Shown here: positions 3,724 to 19,517 of the stretch, piece by piece
Layout: the number at the start of each line of letters is the position of its first letter
Numbering within the stretch: position 1 is the first letter of the stretch
Notes under the pieces: generated by a model
The model's database searches: none
What the model was told of the DNA's origin: nothing
Seen by the model: only the letters and a program-made list of their open reading frames with translations
Virus record (IMG/VR): IMGVR_UViG_3300045988_024436
Span: 1-22,928 of that record
Reading direction: 5' to 3' (one strand)
DNA: 22,928 nucleotides
Origin: a virus
Lineage: Duplodnaviria > Heunggongvirae > Uroviricota > Caudoviricetes
Position numbers and translations under genes: made by a program

Positions 3724-3830
3724 AACTTGTTACCTCGGTCTGTTACCGTTTAGGTAATAATTATGCTTATTTGGTTTGGTGTCAATAGATATGAGTTAAA
3801 AAAATTACCCGTAAGGTAATCTATCTGGCA
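3724..3830 (-). promoter_or_regulatory. leftward early promoter/operator region (PL-like)
   Basis: Minus-strand TTGACA (plus 3780-3785), 17-bp spacer, AATTAT (plus 3757-3762). TTACC-N5-GGTAA palindromes at 3743-3757 (abutting the -10) and 3805-3819 (upstream of the -35). Confidence 0.45.
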
Positions 3831-3876: not shown

Positions 3877-4461
3877 TTATTGTTTGCTTTTTTCGTTCTG
3901 GTTGATGACAAATTCAATGTAACTTTCGATCTTTGCTTTCTCGGTTTCGGGTAACAATGCGTAGCGTGAGCGGTCATAGTTGATAGTCGCAGGGTCGTGC
4001 GGGTGAATCAGTAGTTCATATCCGTGACGCCCGAATGCGGATGCAACATTCTCCAGGGTGGAAATGGAAACGCTGACCTCATTGTTTAACAGGCGGCTGA
4101 TTGTCACCTGGGCGACGCCGGATGCGCGGTGAAGTTTTCCCTGTGTTGAAAGGTCGCGGCTTTCGCTCATCCAGCGTTCCAGGTTGTGAGCCGCCAGCTG
4201 ACCTATATCGCTCGGGCCGACAGGCTGAAAACCCTCCTGAGAAAGCGAACGATCAATATCAAGCCAGTTACGGGGTTTATTGGCGGCAGCTTCAATTTTT
4301 CGTGCAACCTGGTCGCCGATAACCTTCTTGCCAAGAGCCCAGCGGTTTACCAGATTTGCCTGAGTTCCAAGTTTTTCTGCCATCCGCGTCTGAACACCAT
4401 TGAATTCACGGTCGATCAAGTCGTTGAGATTTTGCCTGCGGACGTCCTGGATACTTTTCAT
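3877..4461 (-). CDS. immunity repressor with two XRE-type HTH domains and no LexA-like S24 peptidase domain
   Basis: 194 aa; HTH 1 around QTRMAEKLGTQANLVNRWALGKK, HTH 2 around RASGVAQVTISRLLNNEVSVSISTLENVASAFG; divergent from a Cro-like gene; no Ala-Gly/Ser...Lys autocleavage module visible. Confidence 0.7.
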   Translation of the reverse strand: MKSIQDVRRQNLNDLIDREFNGVQTRMAEKLGTQANLVNRWALGKKVIGDQVARKIEAAANKPRNWLDIDRSLSQEGFQPVGPSDIGQLAAHNLERWMSESRDLSTQGKLHRASGVAQVTISRLLNNEVSVSISTLENVASAFGRHGYELLIHPHDPATINYDRSRYALLPETEKAKIESYIEFVINQNEKSKQ

Positions 4462-4994: not shown

Positions 4995-5207
4995 TTGAAG
5001 ATAGTAACCAGAATGGAGGCCGCAAAAGCCGGGTTAAATCGCTATTTCACAGGAAAGCGGTGCCGTCACGGCCATCTCTCTGAAAGGTATGTTCTGAACG
5101 GAACATGTGTTGAATGTGCAATGAATAGCGCCAACCGCCATCGTAATGAATTTGCTTGTGCACTAAAGAGTGCAAGAGGGGAAACCTATGGCAAGCAGCT
5201 GGATTAA
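4995..5207 (+). CDS. small zinc-ribbon protein (CII-position gene, function unknown)
   Basis: 70 aa from TTG at 4995 (AAGGGG about 9 nt upstream), or 64 aa from ATG at 5013; CRHGH...CVEC metal-binding pattern; 3' end overlaps the replication gene start. Confidence 0.4.
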   Translation: MKIVTRMEAAKAGLNRYFTGKRCRHGHLSERYVLNGTCVECAMNSANRHRNEFACALKSARGETYGKQLD

Positions 5208-6018
5208 GGTTGAAGTTATCACTCCTGATAAACCTGAAATTTTTCAGATAGCAGAAATTCTGGGTATTGATCCAGATGCTGTTCTTGGAAAGCTGGTTCG
5301 TATATGGGCATGGGCTGACCAGCAAACAATAGACGGTAACGCTGGCAGCGTTACAAAAGGAGTACTTGATAGACTCGCTTTTATTACAGGATTTGCTGAC
5401 GCCCTCATTAGCGTCGGATGGCTTGCTTATCATGACGGCAAACTAATTCTTCCAAACTTTGAGCGACATAATGGAGAATCATCGAAAAAACGTGCACTTA
5501 CGAATAGAAGAGTGGCAGAGCATCGAAAACGAGTAACGCAAAAAGTAACGCCAACAGCGTTACAAAAGGAGTTACCAGAGGAAGAGGAAGAGGAAGATAT
5601 ATATAAAACCCCACACATAGCGCACGTGCGCGAGGGTGCTCCGACCAGTGAAGCGAACAGTACGCCGTTGCAGGTGGCAGAACCTGAATTTCTGGATGGC
5701 CTGAGTGAACCCATCGGGAAATTTCCGATGACAGATGGCTGGCTACCGTCGCCAGATTTTCGGCGGCGTGCTGCGCTGTGGGGAACGGCCCTGCCGGAAC
5801 CGGAATTTACACCTGCTGAACTTGCTGCATTCCGGGATTACTGGATGGCTGAGGGCAAAGTGTTCACGCAGGTTCAGTGGGAACAAAAATTCGCCAGGCA
5901 CGTAAATCATATCAGGGGAAAATCAAAAAATGCCGGGAAAAGCGATGAGCTTGACTGGAATAACACTGACTGGATAGAAGGGGTGTGGGATGAAATCAAC
6001 TCCAGAACTTCTCAATGA
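5188..6018 (+). CDS. replication initiation protein with DnaT-like C-terminal domain (O-like position)
   Basis: ATG at 5188 with SD AGAGGGG. C-terminus FPMTDGWLPSPDFRRRAALWGTALPEPEFTPAELAAFRDYWMAEGKVFTQVQWEQKFARHV matches recalled E. coli DnaT. Acidic linker EEEEEED. Confidence 0.7.
   Translation: MASSWIKVEVITPDKPEIFQIAEILGIDPDAVLGKLVRIWAWADQQTIDGNAGSVTKGVLDRLAFITGFADALISVGWLAYHDGKLILPNFERHNGESSKKRALTNRRVAEHRKRVTQKVTPTALQKELPEEEEEEDIYKTPHIAHVREGAPTSEANSTPLQVAEPEFLDGLSEPIGKFPMTDGWLPSPDFRRRAALWGTALPEPEFTPAELAAFRDYWMAEGKVFTQVQWEQKFARHVNHIRGKSKNAGKSDELDWNNTDWIEGVWDEINSRTSQ
5330..5612 (+). other. putative replication origin inside the initiator gene (iteron-like palindromes plus AT-rich tract)
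   Basis: GTAACGC-N5-GCGTTAC at 5336-5354 and 5545-5563, extra GTAACGC at 5533-5539, GTTAC at 5571-5575. 18-bp direct repeat CAGCGTTACAAAAGGAGT at 5346-5363 and 5555-5572. (GAGGAA)3 at 5578-5595, then ATATATATAAAA. Confidence 0.4.
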
Positions 6019-6766
6019 GTACGATCGCTTACGTGAGCATGGTGTTGCTGTGCATGAAGAGCGGCGTGACAGCAATGGCAAAAAGGAGCAGGTTGCTAGA
6101 ATTTTCAATGAACTATTTGTCCAGTTACAGGCTGCATTTCCTGCAAGCGTTTCGACCATAAGGGAGCAGAACAAACTTAATGAATTCCGTAAGCAATGGA
6201 TGCTTGCGTTTCTGGAGAATGGGATCACTACAATGGAACAGGTTAACGCTGGTATGCGCCACGCCCGCGCCAGTGAATCTCCGTTCTGGCCGTCGCCAGG
6301 GCAATTCATCAAGTGGTGCAAAGACAGCAAGATGGTTCTTGGCGTCACCATTGACGATGTGATGGCGGAGTTTCACCGGTACAGCAAGGAAAAAAGTTTA
6401 TATCCTGGTGGTCCCGAAAGATTCCCGTGGCGGCATCCGGTTATGTACTGGGTCGTATGTGATACCCGTCGTGCAATGTATCAGCGCCAGCTTAGCGAGA
6501 GTGAGGTTGAGAAACACGCGCGCAGGCTGCTCGATGATTGGGCGAAAAAGGTGGCTTCCGGACAGCAGATACCCGATCCGGTGATCAGCATACAGGCAAA
6601 GCCAGAGCCCATGAGTACACCTCCGGACACAGGGAGAGACGTTTACCATCCACCAGGGCGAAGTTTCGGGTGCATGCCTAACGCCGCCACCCTTGGGGGA
6701 ATAACACCGGCGCAGTGGCTGATGGAGGAATACAGGCGGGGAAAGGCGTCAGGATTTATCAAGTAA
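5990..6766 (+). CDS. P: lambda P-like replication protein (helicase loader)
   Basis: 258 aa; NGITTMEQVNAGMR and FWPSPGQFIKWC match the lambda P protein as recalled; start overlaps the stop of the upstream initiator gene. Confidence 0.8.
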   Translation: MKSTPELLNEYDRLREHGVAVHEERRDSNGKKEQVARIFNELFVQLQAAFPASVSTIREQNKLNEFRKQWMLAFLENGITTMEQVNAGMRHARASESPFWPSPGQFIKWCKDSKMVLGVTIDDVMAEFHRYSKEKSLYPGGPERFPWRHPVMYWVVCDTRRAMYQRQLSESEVEKHARRLLDDWAKKVASGQQIPDPVISIQAKPEPMSTPPDTGRDVYHPPGRSFGCMPNAATLGGITPAQWLMEEYRRGKASGFIK

Positions 6767-6883: not shown

Positions 6884-7231
6884 ATGAGAAAACAGATGCA
6901 GGCTCTTGGTCGACTCAAAACAGGCCAGATGAACAAAACAGAATCTGCGTATTGCCAGCACCTTGAGCAGCGTAAACGTGCAGGGGAAATCGCTTGGTAT
7001 CGATTCGAGGGTATCAAGCTGCGGTTAGCTGACAACACGTTCTATACGCCAGATTTCGCTGTGATGCTCGCCACCGGCGAGATGGAACTGCACGAAGTGA
7101 AAGGGGGATTCTGGACCGACGACGCCAGGGTGAAAACCAAAGTCGCCGCAGATCAGTATCCGTTCCGAATCATCGGGGTAACGGTTAAACCAAAGAAAGC
7201 TGGTGGTGGCTGGAACATCGAAGAGTTCTGA
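6884..7231 (+). CDS. putative PD-(D/E)XK nuclease (VRR-NUC-like)
   Basis: 115 aa; D...ELHEVKGG arrangement (YTPDFAVMLATGEMELHEVKGG) suggests a D-x(n)-E-x-K active site. Confidence 0.45.
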   Translation: MRKQMQALGRLKTGQMNKTESAYCQHLEQRKRAGEIAWYRFEGIKLRLADNTFYTPDFAVMLATGEMELHEVKGGFWTDDARVKTKVAADQYPFRIIGVTVKPKKAGGGWNIEEF

Positions 7232-10841: not shown

Positions 10842-11296
10842 TGATGCCTGCTGAACCTAAAGCCTATAAACGCAAATCAACGCAATTTAAGCCACTAACA
10901 GCAATGCAGGAGGCTTATTGCCAGTCATACATCAAAACGCCTGAAAACCAGACTCAGGCAGCGATTAACGCAGGATTCTCCCCAAATACAGCGGCAGTTA
11001 AAGCCAGTGTCATGATGCGCGATGAACGCATTCAAAAACGGATTGCCGAGTTGATGGAGGAGCGCAACAAACGAATGCGCGTCAGTGCTGATTACGTTCT
11101 CATGCGCTTGGTGGAGATCGACCAGATGGACGTGATCGACATCCTCAACGACGATGGTAGCCTTAAGCCAATCCGAGAGTGGCCGAAAATCTGGCGCACT
11201 ACGCTTAGCGGCTTTGATCTGTCATCGACCATCATGAACATGAACGAGGATTCGATAGAGACAATCATCAAAAAATTAAATGGCCTGACAAGGTGA
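10841..11296 (+). CDS. terminase small subunit, probably C-terminally truncated by a frame change
   Basis: Track ORF starts at 10763 but its first 26 codons are the terminator and operator DNA, so ATG at 10841 or 10844 is preferred. A protein-like frame ([20 protein letters not shown]...[10 protein letters not shown]) continues from 11290 to a TGA at 11431-11433 that overlaps the GTG of the large subunit. Confidence 0.55.
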
Positions 11297-11429
11297 AGAA
11301 CCTCGAACTGATTGGTAAGCACGTCGACGTCAACGCATTCAAAGAACGCCTGGATGTTAATGTGAATGTGACAATTGCTGATCGCATAGCGGCAGCCAGG
11401 AAGAGACTGAAGAACGTCAGTGGCAATCA

Positions 11430-12908
11430 GTGACAGATACAGCGTTATCTCCTGAAGAGCAGTTAATCGAGATATTGCAGGGTTCACTCACGATCCGCTT
11501 GGCTATGCCCTCTATGGGTTCCCCGTGGGGGGGAAGGAGGGTACTGAACTGGCGACATGCCACCGGTCCACGTCAGTGGCAGGCCGATGCGTTCCGAGAG
11601 ATACGTGATCACCTGCAGAATCCAGAGACGCGATATCAGCCGCTTATGCTGGCACGTGCTTCTGGTCACGGTATTGGTAAATCCGCATTCATCTCAATGC
11701 TGATCAACTGGGGCATGTCCACTTGCGAGGATTGTAAGGTCGTGGTGACCGCCAACACCGACAACCAGCTACGAACGAAGACCTGGCCGGAAATTATCAA
11801 GTGGTCAAACCTTGCTATCACGAAAGACTGGTTTACCTGTACCGCTACCGCGATGTACAGCAATGACCCTGGGCACGACAAGCGGTGGCGAGCTGACGCA
11901 ATCCCCTGGTCTGAGCACAACACTGAGGCATTCGCCGGACTACACAACGAGCGTAAACGCATCATCGTGGTATTTGATGAAGCGTCGAACATTGCGGATC
12001 TGGTGTGGGAAGTTGCCGAGGGTGCGCTAACGGACGAAGACACTGAGATTATCTGGGTGGCTTTCGGAAACCCTACACGTAACACCGGGCGTTTCCGTGA
12101 ATGTTTCCGCAAATACAAACACCGCTGGAAAACTGCGCAGATTGACAGCAGGACGGTGGAAGGCACCAACAAACAGCAGTTGCAGAAATGGGTTGATGAC
12201 TACGGGGAAGATAGCGACTTCGTTAAAATCCGTGTGCGTGGCATATTCCCTGATGCATCTGAATTGCAGTTTATCCCTACCGGTCTTACTGACGAGGCAA
12301 TGAAACGGGTGGTAACTGCTGCGCAGGTGGCACATGCTCCGGTGATAATCGGCGTTGACCCGGCATACTCCGGCGTTGATGACGCTGTGATATACCTGCG
12401 GCAGGGGCTACACAGTAAGGTGCTGTGGACTGGCAACAAGACTACCGACGATCTGATTATGGCGAAGCGTATCGCTGACTTTGAAGACCAGTATCAGGCT
12501 GACGCGGTGTTCATCGACTTCGGTTACGGAACCGGTTTGAAGTCAATCGGTGACGGCTGGGGTCGTACATGGCAACTTGTTCCGTTCGGTGGCGCGTCTA
12601 CTGACCAGCAGATGCTCAACAAGCGTGGGGAGATGTTCAACTCATGCAAGACATGGCTGAGGCTGGGCGGCATGCTTGATGACCAGGAAACAGCGGACGA
12701 CCTGTCGGCGGCAGAGTACAAAGTTCGAGTGGACGGTAAAATCGTTATCGAACCGAAGGAAGATATCAAGGAGCGGCTTGGGCGTTCTCCTGGTAAAGGC
12801 GATGCGCTACTGCTGACGTTTGCGTTCCCGGTGTCAAAGCGCCTGCGAATTCCCGGGCAGCAGAACCAGCAAGGCAAGGCCATTACAGATTACGATCCCT
12901 ATGCTTAA
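11430..12908 (+). CDS. terminase large subunit
   Basis: 492 aa; ATPase-like N-terminal half and nuclease-like C-terminal half ([11 protein letters not shown]...DAV); GTG start overlaps the upstream stop. Confidence 0.8.
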
Positions 12909-12958
12909 TCCGTTAGCGGGGATAATGACGGAGATATCCTCTGGTGAGGATAAAACAA

Positions 12959-12978
12959 AGCCAGCTCATCGGCTGGCT
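12959..12978. terminator. hairpin terminator after terminase, stronger on the minus strand
   Basis: AGCCAGC-TCATCG-GCTGGCT; T-rich on the minus side (TTTGTTTTAT) and TGTTTGT on the plus side. Confidence 0.5.
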
Positions 12979-13184
12979 GTTTGTGACATGTCACGGTGTT
13001 AGAAGGTTATTTTATCGAATGCGGCGTTGATTGCCTTGGCGTCCTGCTCAGCACCAACCACATCAAGTAAAGATCTTTTACTAAGCACTTCAGCCAGGCA
13101 TTGTAACTTCATTGTTGTATAAGGTTTTTCGCGCATTGTAATTCATCATCACTTTTTTCTTTGGCGTATACAGCGCGAGAAATA

Positions 13185-13427
13185 TCAAACTACATTGCCT
13201 TTTTCCATTTCAGTTTTCTGCGCTGAAATCCAGTCATGGCAAGTAACTCCTATTCCATGGTCATCGCTAAGCGTTAACCCGGCAAGTCGCTCACCTGGAA
13301 TTGCTTCACAAAGCATTTCATTTCCTGCAAAAACACCATAAAAAATTGAGTCATCACCCTGAACAATGCGTACATATTTGCACGGCCATTCATTTAGATA
13401 TTTAGCTAGCATGTCGGCTGTTTTCAT
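13185..13427 (-). CDS. hypothetical 80-aa protein in minus-strand insert between terminase and head genes
   Basis: ATG at 13425-13427 with SD AAGGTGAG; opposite strand to the flanking late genes; lies between two minus-strand terminators. Confidence 0.4.
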   Translation of the reverse strand: MKTADMLAKYLNEWPCKYVRIVQGDDSIFYGVFAGNEMLCEAIPGERLAGLTLSDDHGIGVTCHDWISAQKTEMEKGNVV

Positions 13428-13436
13428 GATCTCACC

Positions 13437-13459
13437 TTAAAAAAATGCCCGGCGAACCG
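13437..13459 (-). terminator. rho-independent terminator (minus strand) immediately upstream of the 80-aa ORF
   Basis: Minus strand reads GCCCGG-TTCG-CCGGGC then A TTTTTTT, ending 2 nt before the SD. Confidence 0.6.
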
Positions 13460-13496
13460 GGCGAACTGGAAGCAATGAGTTATGCCTTCCGTGGCT

Positions 13497-13512
13497 GTAC
13501 TGGTTTACAGCA
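13497..13512. promoter_or_regulatory. LexA-box-like palindrome CTGTA-N6-TACAG
   Basis: CTGTACTGGTTTACAG fits the CTGT-N8-ACAG SOS-box core with CTGTA/TACAG arms; centre less AT-rich than canonical boxes. Confidence 0.3.
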
Positions 13513-13540
13513 TGAAGCCATCGCAATGGCGCCCTGCTGT

Positions 13541-13582
13541 AAAAAGGGCGGTGATAGTCCTTCAAGGGAAACCATCACCGCC
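13541..13582 (-). terminator. terminator-like hairpin downstream of the tRNA (minus strand)
   Basis: 9-bp stem GGCGGTGAT/ATCACCGCC (13547-13582), 18-nt loop, followed on the minus strand by CTTTTTAC. Confidence 0.45.
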
Positions 13583-13626
13583 AAGCCCCTGGAACTTCTG
13601 GCATCACGGTCCTTAGGCGTGATTCT

Positions 13627-13702
13627 GGCGTGGCATGCAGGATTCGAACCTGCGACCAACCGCTTAGAAGGCGGTTGCTCTGTCCAGCTGAGCTAATGCC
13701 AC
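13627..13702 (-). tRNA. tRNA-Arg (anticodon UCU)
   Basis: Reverse complement GTGGCATTAGCTCAGCTGGACAGAGCAACCGCCTTCTAAGCGGTTGGTCGCAGGTTCGAATCCTGCATGCCACGCCA folds as a cloverleaf: 7-bp acceptor stem, anticodon loop CTTCTAA, T-loop TTCGAAT, encoded CCA. Close to E. coli argU as recalled. Confidence 0.9.
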
Positions 13703-14129
13703 AACGCTGAGAGCACTTAGCCTGTTAAGGCGCCACACTTTGTCGCGGCTCCATAAATGCTCTCATCGTTGTACCCTCGTCTCTTCCGAGGCGTCACACC
13801 GAATCGCCGGGATGGTGAATCCCCGTGCGCGGAATAAAACCGCTCGACTTGCACATTCCGGCTACCTGGTTCGTTTGCCCGAGCAAGGGAGGGTGCCCCT
13901 TAAACGTATCCAGACCGCTATCGGCGCATGTGCCATACGCCGTACTGCTCAAAATAAAAGCTCACTCCACCTGTTCAATTTAACGACAAGCCAGTCAGGT
14001 TAGTAACCGGAATGAACTCTTTGGTTACCTGAAAGGTAATAATTTGTGCGTTAAATGTCAACTGCCTACGATAAATAAATCATATGTGGTTAAATTGGTA
14101 ATAATTTAATTGCGTACGGAGTCATTGAT

Positions 14130-14336
14130 ATGTGCATGGGTAGCTCACCATCAGTGCCTGCAACACCAGAAGTTCAGGCAGCACCACAGGAGCAGGATGC
14201 CGCCGTTGTTGATGCCCGCGACGAAGAAACTCGTCGCCGTCGCGCTGCTGCTGGTCGTAGTTCTACGCTGCTTACCGGTTCTCAGGGCGACACATCAACC
14301 GCTAATACCAGCGGTAAAACGCTGCTTGGTCAGTAA
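14130..14336 (+). CDS. hypothetical small protein at the start of the morphogenesis operon
   Basis: 68 aa; GGAG 8 nt before the ATG; preferred over the overlapping 14110 ORF because of the SD and because its stop sits just before the next gene. Confidence 0.4.
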   Translation: MCMGSSPSVPATPEVQAAPQEQDAAVVDARDEETRRRRAAAGRSSTLLTGSQGDTSTANTSGKTLLGQ

Positions 14337-14350
14337 CCGGAGTCATTGAA

Positions 14351-16028
14351 ATGGCGGAAACAACTAAAGAGCGATTGAACAAACAGTTCGCACAACTTGA
14401 AAGCGAGCGTCAGTCGTTCGAGCCGCACTGGCGCGAGTTGAGTGATTACATCAACCCGCGTGGTTCCCGCTTTCTGACTTCTGAGGTTAACCGTAACGAT
14501 CGACGCAATACACGCATTATTGATTCGACCGGGACTATGGCGGCGCGCACTCTCGCCAGCGGCATGATGTCAGGCATCACAGCCCCGCGCGTCCGTGGTT
14601 TCGCCTGGCTAGCCAGATCCTGAAATGATGGATTATGGCCCTGTTAAGTTGTGGCTTGAGGCGGTGCAGAACCGCATGAACGATATGTTCAATAAGTCGA
14701 ATCTCTATCAGTCGCTGCCGCAGTTATACGGAAGCCTCGGCACATACAGCACTGGTGCAATGGCAGTGCTGGAGGATGACGAGGACATCATTCGCACAAT
14801 GCCATTCCCGATAGGCAGTTACTACCTGGCTAACTCACCTCGTGGCAGTGTGGACACCTGTTTTCGCAAGTTCTCTATGACTGTTCGTCAGCTTGTTCAG
14901 GAGTTCGGGCTAAATAACGTCAGCGAATCCGTAAAAAGCATGTGGGAAAGCGGAACCTACGAGAAGTGGATTGAAGTGATGCATTCGGTTTACCCGAACA
15001 TTGACCGCGATACATCGAAGCTGGATAGCAAGAACAAGCCATTCAAATCGGTTTATTACGAGGTTGGTGGCGATAACGACAAGTTGTTGCGTGAGTCCGG
15101 ATTCGATGAGTTTCCAATTATGGCTCCGCGCTGGGAAGTTAACGGCGAAGATGTTTATGGATCATCATGCCCGGGTATGCTGGCGCTTGGACCTGTTAAG
15201 GCATTGCAGCTTCTCCAGAAGCGCAAGTCGCAGTTGATTGATAAAGCCACCAATCCGCCGATGGTTGCTCCGACTTCCCTCAAGAATCAGCGTGCCTCCC
15301 TTCTTCCTGGCGACATCACGTATATCGATCAGATTACTGGTCAGGATGGTTTCAGGCCTGCTTATCTGGTTAACCCCAGTACAGCAGATTTGGTGGCAGA
15401 CATTCAGGACACCCGTCAAATCATTAACAGCGCCTACTTTGTCGATCTGTTCATGATGTTGCAGAACATCAATACCCGCTCGATGCCTGTTGAAGCGGTG
15501 ATCGAAATGAAAGAAGAAAAACTTCTGATGTTGGGGCCGGTTCTGGAGCGTCTGAACGACGAATGTCTTAATCCTCTCATTGACCGCGCTTTCTCGATGA
15601 TGGTGCGTAAAAACATGCTGCCGCCACCGCCTGACGCGATGGAAGGTATGCCCCTGAAGGTCGAATACATTTCCGTCATGGCTCAGGCGCAGAAGTCTAT
15701 CGGCCTGTCCAGTCTGGCGTCTACGGTCAACTTCATTGGTCAACTTGCGCAAGCGAAACCAGAAGCTCTCGACAAACTCAACGTTGATCAGGCGATCGAT
15801 GCATTCGCTGATATGTCCGGAGTGTCTCCAACCGTCATTGTTCCGCAGGAACAGGTTGAGCAGGCTCGCCAGCAACGGGCACAGCAACAACAGCAGCAAC
15901 AAATGATGGCGATGGGGATGGCGGCGGCACAGGGTGCCAAGACGCTAAGCGAAGCTAAAACTTCGGATCCGAGTGTTTTGTCAGCTATGGCGAATGCAGT
16001 TAGTGGTCAGGGTGGGCAATCACAATGA
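14351..16028 (+). pseudogene. portal (head-to-tail connector) protein, apparently split by two nearby frame changes (or sequencing errors)
   Basis: ORFs 14351-14623 (90 aa) and 14625-16028 (467 aa) are in different frames. The third frame across the junction encodes SPARPWFRLA (14581-14610), which resembles the P-x3-W-x-RL stretch of T7 gp8; a C4 run lies at 14583-14586. Poly-Q near the C-terminus. Confidence 0.65.
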
Positions 16029-18893: not shown

Positions 18894-18911
18894 GCAGGAG
18901 TATAGAAACTT

Positions 18912-19517
18912 ATGGCCTCTGTAGTAGAGATCTGCAATCGTGCGCTGTCCAATATTGGCAACAGCCGCAGCATTAACAGCCTGACGGAAGCCAGCAAGGA
19001 AGCGGGGGAATGTTCGCTGCACTTTGAGGCCTGCCGTGATGCTGTGCTTTCTGATTTTGACTGGAACTTTGCTACCAAACGCGTGGCGCTTGCAGATACG
19101 AGCAATCCACCGCCTGACTGGGAATATGCGTACCAGTACCCGTCAGATTGTCTGCGCATTACTGAAATTATGCTTCCTGGTGTACGCAATCCAACAGCAG
19201 CAATGCGCGTTCAGTACGAAGTTGGTGCAGACACCAACGGAACAGGAAAGTTGATCTACACAGACCAGCCGCAGGCATGGCTCAAGTATGTCTCTCGCGT
19301 TTCAGATGTGAACATGTTTGATGCCATTTTTATGGAGGCGTTGGCCTGGCGTCTTGCGGCAGCTATTAACATGGCGCTGACTGGGAATGCAGACCTCGGT
19401 ACGTTTGCCCTCAATATGTACAATCGCGTGATTCTTAGTGCTGGCTCGCATAGCCAGAATGAATCACAGGAACCACTGCCACCGGTTGACGAGTTTACCA
19501 TTGCGAGGTTGTCCTGA
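18912..19517 (+). CDS. tail tubular protein A (T7 gp11-like)
   Basis: 201 aa; N-terminus ICNRALSNIGNSRSINSLTEASKEAG follows the pattern of the recalled T7 gp11 N-terminus; size and position before a roughly 800-aa protein fit. Confidence 0.55.
   Translation: MASVVEICNRALSNIGNSRSINSLTEASKEAGECSLHFEACRDAVLSDFDWNFATKRVALADTSNPPPDWEYAYQYPSDCLRITEIMLPGVRNPTAAMRVQYEVGADTNGTGKLIYTDQPQAWLKYVSRVSDVNMFDAIFMEALAWRLAAAINMALTGNADLGTFALNMYNRVILSAGSHSQNESQEPLPPVDEFTIARLS

Follow-up and report, generated by a model that had tools for sequence, protein, structure and literature searches.

Phage transfer RNAs (tRNAs) that read codons rare in the host are textbook knowledge, and among coliphages they include the tRNA-Arg of T4 and ileZ-argN-argO of the Stx phages. 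In the Uetakevirus group a tRNA is annotated in typing phages 9/10, phiv142-3, SPN9TCW, SPC32H, ST512-KPC3phi13.3 and ZX5. Here we describe the same gene, at the same position and on the same strand, in a stretch of 22,928 nucleotides (nt) of IMG/VR record IMGVR_UViG_3300045988_024436, which we call the window and which derives from a Uetakevirus (phiV10/epsilon15-like) prophage. The tRNA itself is already known, since it is annotated at the same place in these relatives and the copy of vB_EcoP_ZX5 is 100% identical (that of phiV10 is 1 nt off); it is also found in E. coli genomes annotated by the Prokaryotic Genome Annotation Pipeline (PGAP). The ZX5 paper mentions 'one tRNA' (PMC9782041). 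The records and papers of these phages describe no function, upstream structured RNA, operator or cargo exchange, and in the phiV10 record an antisense hypothetical coding sequence, p04, is annotated over the locus in place of the tRNA.

The tRNA alone would be routine; the interest lies in its setting behind an unannotated RNA that covariation supports. Like argU and the tRNAs of T4 and the Stx phages, it reads a host-rare codon. Unlike those of T4 and the Stx phages, it is single and lies in a putative structured precursor antisense to the late region, and not in a cluster downstream of a late promoter; argO-type matches did turn up in the sequence search with the tRNA. On the strength of sequence comparison, we propose an RNA operon with several interchangeable cargos, of which the tRNA is one (Table 1). 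A first reading of the window (the original prediction) had noticed the tRNA and overlooked the conserved structured RNA and the operator-bearing candidate promoter on its 5′ side.

Two further groups of described RNAs are close to this operon. STnc100 (RF02076) and PasD are prophage-borne RNAs of unknown or small RNA (sRNA) function (bioRxiv 10.64898/2026.05.13.724894; PMC12370729), and their published copies lie near stx and lysis genes, not behind the leader domain described here. The put RNA of HK022 (PMC9378689) is about 70 nt long and has two stem-loops, compared to about 170 nt and five helices for the domain described here.

ARAGORN finds a single tRNA in the window, a tRNA-Arg with anticodon tct, and the Rfam tRNA model RF00005 scores it at 71.7 bits (gathering score 29, E = 3.9e-14). 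The minus strand folds into a cloverleaf of -34.4 kcal/mol (z = -3.7 relative to shuffles). These results confirm the original prediction of a complete tRNA-Arg(UCU) with encoded CCA, antisense between terminase and portal. It had placed the gene at 13627-13702; the end at 13702 is correct, and the start is one base short because the CCA is encoded through 13626 (discriminator G at 13629, CCA at 13628-13626).

A20, C35 and U/G36 are the identity elements of E. coli arginyl-tRNA synthetase. The tRNA sequence carries A20, C35 and U36, as do all 15 alleles that we found among 53 loci, so charging is predicted. The anticodon UCU sits in a 7-nt loop, CUUCUAA (U33, A37), which is the same as in argU and, like A20, is constant over the 15 alleles; the CCA is encoded in all except L061 (a 76-nt call lacking the final A). 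Substitutions fall in the D loop, the variable loop and the discriminator, and changes in stems are wobble or compensated, as in U5-A68 of L117 and two anticodon-stem pairs of L106. Judged from the letters, this allele pattern is that of a gene selected for tRNA function.

Many integrases target tRNA genes, and the attP of Epsilon34 resembles the 3′ end of argU, both of which could make the tRNA an attachment-site remnant or a captured host argU with no present function. The tRNA is a full-length gene with 81.8% identity to K-12 argU. Of the 14 differences (over 77 positions), ten come in pairs that fully compensate each other, which makes five base pairs in the acceptor and anticodon stems. 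The two genes agree in the D stem, the T arm, the anticodon loop, A20 and G73; the acceptor 3′ strand differs, so that they do not share an identical 3′ half. The family integrates at guaA: the attP/attB of ZX5 map to the guaA 3′ end, with the core attgagtgggaatgatt (PMC9782041). The window holds no integrase over its 22,928 nt, and in a 98%-identical prophage the integrase adjoins guaA, about 14 kb from the tRNA, whose place inside the element is shared by phages of E. coli, Salmonella and Klebsiella. Because of the 14 differences from argU and the integration at guaA, the tRNA is neither the host gene nor an attachment core. We reject that origin as extremely unlikely, in line with the original prediction, which had called the tRNA internal to the element, with no integrase adjacent, and unlikely to be an attachment-site remnant.

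As a separate observation, the matches listed for the tRNA include dozens of Synechococcus cyanophages (e.g. S-RIM2) with a tRNA-Arg 87-92% identical over about 60-65 nt. Over that length, the cyanophage tRNA-Arg is nearer to the coliphage tRNA than the host argU is over the whole gene.

The region 5′ of the tRNA is conserved in an unusual pattern. Aligned with Salmonella SPN9TCW and a Klebsiella phage, about 330 nt contain near-invariant blocks; the flanking protein genes are 75-80% identical. Between the conserved blocks lie inserts of variable length closed by complementary sequences, and a 26-nt motif of the region occurs in at least 120 IMG/VR contigs. This region includes a structured domain of five helices and a hairpin, H1, that follows it.

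In 34 diverse sequences, 96.2% of the cells in the five helices pair, compared to 88.3% in shuffles. Compensatory changes are seen in 12 of the 26 pairs, a number matched by 0 of 500 shuffles, and slid controls pair at 30-47%. With 65 distinct sequences, pairing is 96.5% and 13 pairs are compensated. For example, the P6 stem CCUCG/CGAGG is replaced by CCUGG/CCAGG, GCCGG/CCGGC and CCCGG/CCGGG while its loop, GAAGAG(A/U), is unchanged; the domain's hairpin loops CUCACCA and GAAGAGA are conserved. With the covariance model R1, the window reaches 140.6 bits, and sequences left out of the building of the model reach 107-151 bits. A U·G pair conserved in P1, together with the direction of the tRNA, puts the RNA on the minus strand of the window.

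H1 also covaries, over 52 distinct variants whose inserts range from about 40 to 110 nt, and the insert of the window recurs in mEp460 and in CPS-53-like prophages. The core (U/C)GCUCU(U/C) of its 3′ strand (13702-13715) resembles the boxA of rrn and lambda nut sites; as this sequence is tied up in a helix, the likeness probably means little. P6, with its 5-bp (base-pair) stem and GAAGAGA loop, presumably resembles a boxB hairpin.

In Rfam 15 the structured domain of the window has no match, either at the gathering score or at E <= 5, and over 20 related loci and the window the Rfam hits are tRNA, one STnc100 and an unrelated C4/isrK. That last pair is found in mEp460 (L126 706-894), where the C4 antisense RNA (83.6 bits) lies beside isrK (67 bits) in the antirepressor region. 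No description of the domain was found in the literature on the P1 ban leader RNA, tRNA-like prophage sRNAs and HK639/mEp021 antitermination, a coverage that is incomplete, so an earlier description is possible. With the same limit on the literature searched, the operon architecture, the structured domain and the exchange of tRNA and sRNA cargos appear to be undescribed in Rfam, RefSeq annotation and publications.

Early operons of three phage lineages have the domain at their head: lambdoid phages, P1/P7 and Uetakevirus. Lambdoid carriers are mEp460, cdtI, Stx2c phages and CPS-53-like prophages. There the domain begins a few tens of nt past a lambda-like PL promoter with operators, right after a cI-like repressor gene and terminator, and is followed by H1, the cargo, an intrinsic terminator and the early-left genes from yfdP onwards. 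In the C1-controlled ban operon of P1 and P7 it is found between tRNA-Ile and ban, with neither H1 nor cargo; in both phages (L125 2999-3176 for P7) it is unannotated and has a fully covaried P6 (GCCGG/CCGGC).

The lambdoid domain shares its position with HK022 putL and lambda nutL, past PL/OL and before the intrinsic terminators and early-left genes, and the order in the window is likewise put-like: promoter, domain, then terminators T1 and T2. The HK022 immunity region itself gave no match to the domain by BLAST, motif search or covariance model. Everywhere, the domain stands at the 5′ end of an early operon, always before intrinsic terminators and protein genes. From this position, it possibly acts in terminator read-through or in transcript processing.

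Among GTDB species genomes, true matches to the domain are confined to Enterobacteriaceae. Matches to an 18-nt degenerate motif in unrelated phyla were discarded as chance, the rest of the domain being present only in Enterobacteriaceae. Of 5426 complete E. coli genomes, 1836 carry the domain, at 2467 places (554 on plasmids), and no annotated RefSeq feature lies under it among the E. coli matches listed. K-12 has lost it: compared to L210 3840-4560, the yfdO-yfdP intergenic region of CPS-53 (L211) lacks repressor, PL, domain, cargo and terminator. The deletion reaches the yfdP ribosome-binding site; from 31 nt ahead of the yfdP start, and through it, the two sequences are homologous again. 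Such a loss may explain why the domain escaped notice, including in K-12 transcriptomes.

What follows H1 is variable. In a census of the 107 unique IMG/VR extracts with the structured domain, about 46 have tRNA-Arg(UCU) after H1, about 26 an RNA that starts with GUGGUGAAU, about 20 another GUGG-initiated RNA, and 16 nothing recognisable. Many of the non-tRNA cargos are closed by a stem like that of an acceptor, UGUGGUG...CACCACA; A-CCA often comes next, and a hairpin stacks beside the 3′ strand. One cargo, in L094, matches STnc100 (47.7 bits, which reaches the gathering score). Its place is that of the tRNA, between H1 and the shared terminator, in a locus that has the same 5′ domain, and the alignment to the model spans cargo, trailer and terminator. 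The STnc100 model finds nothing in the window, not even at E <= 5, and the other cargos of the GUGGUGAAU type fall below Rfam thresholds.

Non-tRNA cargos also occur in the Uetakevirus loci L097, L099, L112, L113, L121 and L123, whose terL is 76-95% identical and whose portal, where the locus extends that far, is 58-87% identical. Since these loci are homologous in terL and portal, cargo is swapped within the phage group. The 3′ part of the unit stays in place: hairpin H2 is kept after tRNA and non-tRNA cargos, and GGCGGU...ACCGCC-UUUUU terminators homologous to T1 follow every cargo type. The original prediction had seen a terminator downstream of the tRNA, which is indeed there (a 14-bp stem, then CTTTTT; hairpin 13582..13547, 43 nt past the CCA), and had assigned it to the tRNA. 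As H2 and T1 are homologous whatever the cargo, T1 belongs to the RNA unit and not to the tRNA.

With such conserved flanks, the tRNA might serve mainly as a structure for RNase P and 3′ enzymes, which would free the leader and/or the trailer with T1 as stable regulatory RNAs (compare mascRNA/MALAT1 and 3′ETS-leuZ), with decoding secondary. H1 ends precisely at tRNA position +1, the non-decoding RNAs that fill the slot in relatives keep an acceptor-like stem and in many cases end in ACCA, H2 and T1 are conserved whichever cargo precedes them, and the STnc100 model covers cargo, trailer and terminator in L094. Such a handle would, however, not need the decoding features that are retained in 15 of 15 alleles (the CCA in all but one), and the P1/P7 domain works with no downstream cargo. 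We consider a mere handle quite unlikely.

A broader proposal, which we put forward tentatively, is that the domain is an undescribed family of cis-acting leader RNAs at the head of repressor-controlled early operons in three unrelated coliphage lineages. It would allow terminator read-through or otherwise govern the transcript, and tRNA-Arg, STnc100 and the tRNA-like RNAs would be exchangeable 'RNA morons' released by tRNA-processing enzymes. If the domain does control early transcription or processing, the early programme of many temperate coliphages would include a further layer based on RNA. Phage tRNAs and prophage sRNAs such as STnc100 would then be linked as alternative cargos of one platform. 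This link would bear on the ways in which tRNAs and sRNAs are gained and exchanged by phages, and on the reason why a small temperate phage keeps a single tRNA.

Next to the domain, we found a candidate promoter for the unit. TTGACA-17 nt-TACCTT (14061-14033) is the sole conserved sequence 5′ of the leader in the E. coli, Salmonella and Klebsiella relatives. Its TTGAC is invariant in these relatives, and in 64 of 66 Uetakevirus-type extracts it lies 17-20 nt 5′ of a palindrome that overlaps the -10 element and whose half-sites are invariant, with a variable centre, over all 66. The leader between the candidate start and the domain is poorly conserved: SPN9TCW has a deletion of 45 nt, and in the window a weak terminator-like hairpin is found at 14010..13991.

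The palindrome belongs to a set. TTACC-N5-GGTAA occurs 10 times in the window (at 3743, 3805, 4517, 4565, 4902, 6804, 6866, 10809, 10827 and 14025) compared to 0.41 expected, a count reached in 0 of 100 shuffles, and most sites are paired at a spacing of 18-62 bp. Two of them separate a helix-turn-helix repressor gene (3877-4461) from a cro-like gene, and two follow just downstream of the repressor gene, ahead of the early-left genes; others precede the gene at 6884 and the RNA unit or fall within the beginning of terS. This distribution suggests that one repressor silences many transcription units, as C1 does in P1. With the -10 inside the candidate operator, we infer that the RNA unit is repressed in the lysogen by putative binding of this repressor and is expressed early. 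An early, repressor-controlled unit agrees with the position of the domain in the lambdoid phages and P1.

We thus envisage that transcription would start from TTGACA-17-TACCTT, a promoter that would be off in the lysogen and come on early upon induction or infection. The transcript would pass through the domain, H1 and the tRNA, which, by analogy with general tRNA biology, would be released by RNase P and 3′ trimming, its CCA being encoded. Most transcripts would end at T1 or T2, and some would proceed into a swappable accessory open reading frame (ORF). The freed tRNA would most likely add decoding capacity for AGA.

Codon usage is consistent with this last step. ORFs of the window have 5.9 AGA and 3.8 AGG per 1000 codons and an intact relative prophage 6.4 and 3.5, compared to 1.3 and 0.6 in 32 host genes. 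AGA is thus about 5-fold commoner in the phage, and the comparison that the original prediction proposed finds both codons commoner in the phage than in this sample of host genes. AGA is found 0-1 times in capsid genes and mostly in replication (5188-6763) and tail genes. A supplement for the rare AGA codon is therefore a plausible role that fits the codon bias. We assign a probability of roughly 0.55 to the reading in which a structured precursor, made early and controlled by the repressor, yields a functional tRNA-Arg(UCU) that supplements the decoding of AGA during lytic growth.

Several observations weigh against this reading. A scan of 12700-14700 found no consensus sigma-70 promoter, and the candidate escaped it because its weak -10 matches at only 3 of 6 positions; the promoter is proposed from conservation and the operator. 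The operator might instead act on a divergent rightward promoter of the structural genes. AGA in flanking genes is 3.3 per 1000 in loci with the tRNA and 2.75 in loci lacking it (Mann-Whitney p = 0.8), a null result that neither backs nor kills supplementation because partial loci were compared. ATA is likewise enriched in the phage though there is no phage tRNA-Ile. The relative Tyrion has no tRNA at all (PMC5754475), and many relatives whose loci hold other cargos do well lacking the tRNA. Finally, portal and terS are broken in this copy, and the element may be decaying here though the tRNA is intact.

The protein-coding end of the antisense cassette points to another possible use of the tRNA. 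The accessory ORF is exchanged among relatives at exact junctions, with T2 and the ribosome-binding site on one side and T3 on the other. In phiV10 the slot holds a PF13876 (N4 gp49 / Sf6 gp66) protein, and in Klebsiella phage ST512-KPC3phi13.3 (L004 2483-3004) a Tad2-like Thoeris anti-defence protein (PF11195, E = 4e-26). In relatives of the window's own version it is 140 aa long; here five small insertions (13112-13191) break the frame when compared with an intact relative. To be expressed, the ORF needs transcripts that read through two terminators. Judging by these swapped contents, the cassette resembles an early accessory module that might serve counter-defence.

This cassette resembles phage morons, in that it sits antisense between terL and portal and has a promoter, terminators and a precisely swapped ORF. 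Unlike morons, its promoter is apparently repressor-controlled and not lysogen-expressed, and the cassette is mostly RNA (leader, hairpin and tRNA).

In a counter-defence role, the tRNA would replace host tRNA-Arg cut by defence nucleases, and the whole cassette would be an early anti-defence module. There is precedent for tRNA-targeting defences and for protective phage tRNAs: P2 Old cuts several tRNAs, that for Arg among them, and cells can be rescued by phage tRNA libraries (PMC12445682). The Tad2-like protein in the ORF slot, the apparently early and repressor-controlled expression and the fact that the presence of the tRNA does not track AGA usage are all consistent with it. Nonetheless, the anticodon loop CUUCUAA is that of argU, so that the changes typical of nuclease escape are absent from it. 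No defence system specific for tRNA-Arg(UCU) was identified in this analysis, and PADLOC, a library of defence and not anti-defence models, gave no match for the ORFs of the cassette. A tRNA that works primarily against host defences thus seems unlikely to us, and supplementation of AGA decoding remains the preferred reading.

Table 1 Features of the antisense RNA unit and its neighbours in the window
Feature	Positions	Strand	Details and basis
Terminase small subunit (terS)		plus	PF03592
Terminase large subunit (terL)	11430-12908	plus	PHROG 2
Terminator T3	12950..12978	minus	End of antisense cassette, just past terL; phiV10 record lists this hairpin as a rho-independent terminator after terL
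Accessory ORF	13185..13427	minus	80 aa; truncated PHROG 4846 member (E = 1e-47, profile positions 1-79/140)
Terminator T2	13438..13462	minus	GCCCGG-UUCG-CCGGGC then AUUUUUUU; ends 10 nt short of the accessory ORF's start codon
Hairpin H3	13507..13540	minus	ACAGCA...UGCUGU, between T1 and T2; near-invariant in E. coli, Salmonella and Klebsiella relatives
Terminator T1	13537..13582	minus	14-bp stem then CUUUUU
Hairpin H2 (3′ trailer)	13603..13623	minus	AUCACG...CGUGAU; sequence reading
tRNA-Arg(UCU)	13626..13702	minus	A20, C35, U36, discriminator G73, CCA encoded; ARAGORN, Rfam, fold
Hairpin H1	13702..13771	minus	Stem CAACGAUGAGAGCA/UGCUCUCAGCGUUG, 42-nt insert; last G is tRNA nucleotide 1
Structured RNA domain	13773..13945	minus	173 nt; helices P1, P2, P4, P5, P6; covariation, covariance model R1
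Variable 5′ leader	13946..14024	minus	Candidate start site to conserved domain
Candidate prophage-repressor operator	14025..14039	unstranded	Palindrome TTACCTTTCAGGTAA; overlaps -10 TACCTT (14033-14038, minus)
Candidate -35	14056..14061	minus	TTGACA, leftward promoter of the RNA/tRNA unit; sequence reading, conservation
68-aa protein gene	14130-14336	plus	
Portal	14351-16028	plus	PF12236; followed by protease and major capsid protein

The tRNA region is 97-99% identical to phiV10, TL-2011b, vB_EcoP_ZX5, O157 typing phages 9/10 and many E. coli prophages. An 83-aa ORF at 13445-13696 on the plus strand runs antisense to the tRNA, T1 and T2. It corresponds to hypothetical PhiV10p04 (L001 2672-2923; PHROG 4647, E = 2e-52). 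Frames open antisense to the tRNA vary in length among relatives, and PGAP makes no call for this ORF, which is probably an annotation artefact that masks the tRNA in some records.

The portal is split into ORFs of 90 aa and 467 aa by two separate 1-nt deletions (near 14581 and 14612) relative to phiV10 and an E. coli prophage, which reflects either a defective prophage or assembly errors. Small indels are grouped at the 3′ end of terS and the 5′ end of terL (11270-11554) and in the accessory ORF (13112-13191); the terS gene and this ORF are both cut short. A deletion of about 317 bp at 18901-18912 has taken out the gp10 'capsid staple' gene that a relative retains (L002, 26003-26326).

Finally, an AT-rich stretch of about 50 nt, TAAATAAATCATATGTGGTTAAATTGGTAATAATTTAATTGCGTACGGAG (14064-14115), lies 5′ of the 68-aa gene and the portal and is invariant in the E. 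coli, Salmonella and Klebsiella relatives. It includes the inverted repeat TTAAATT...AATTTAA and may be a regulatory site for the structural operon.

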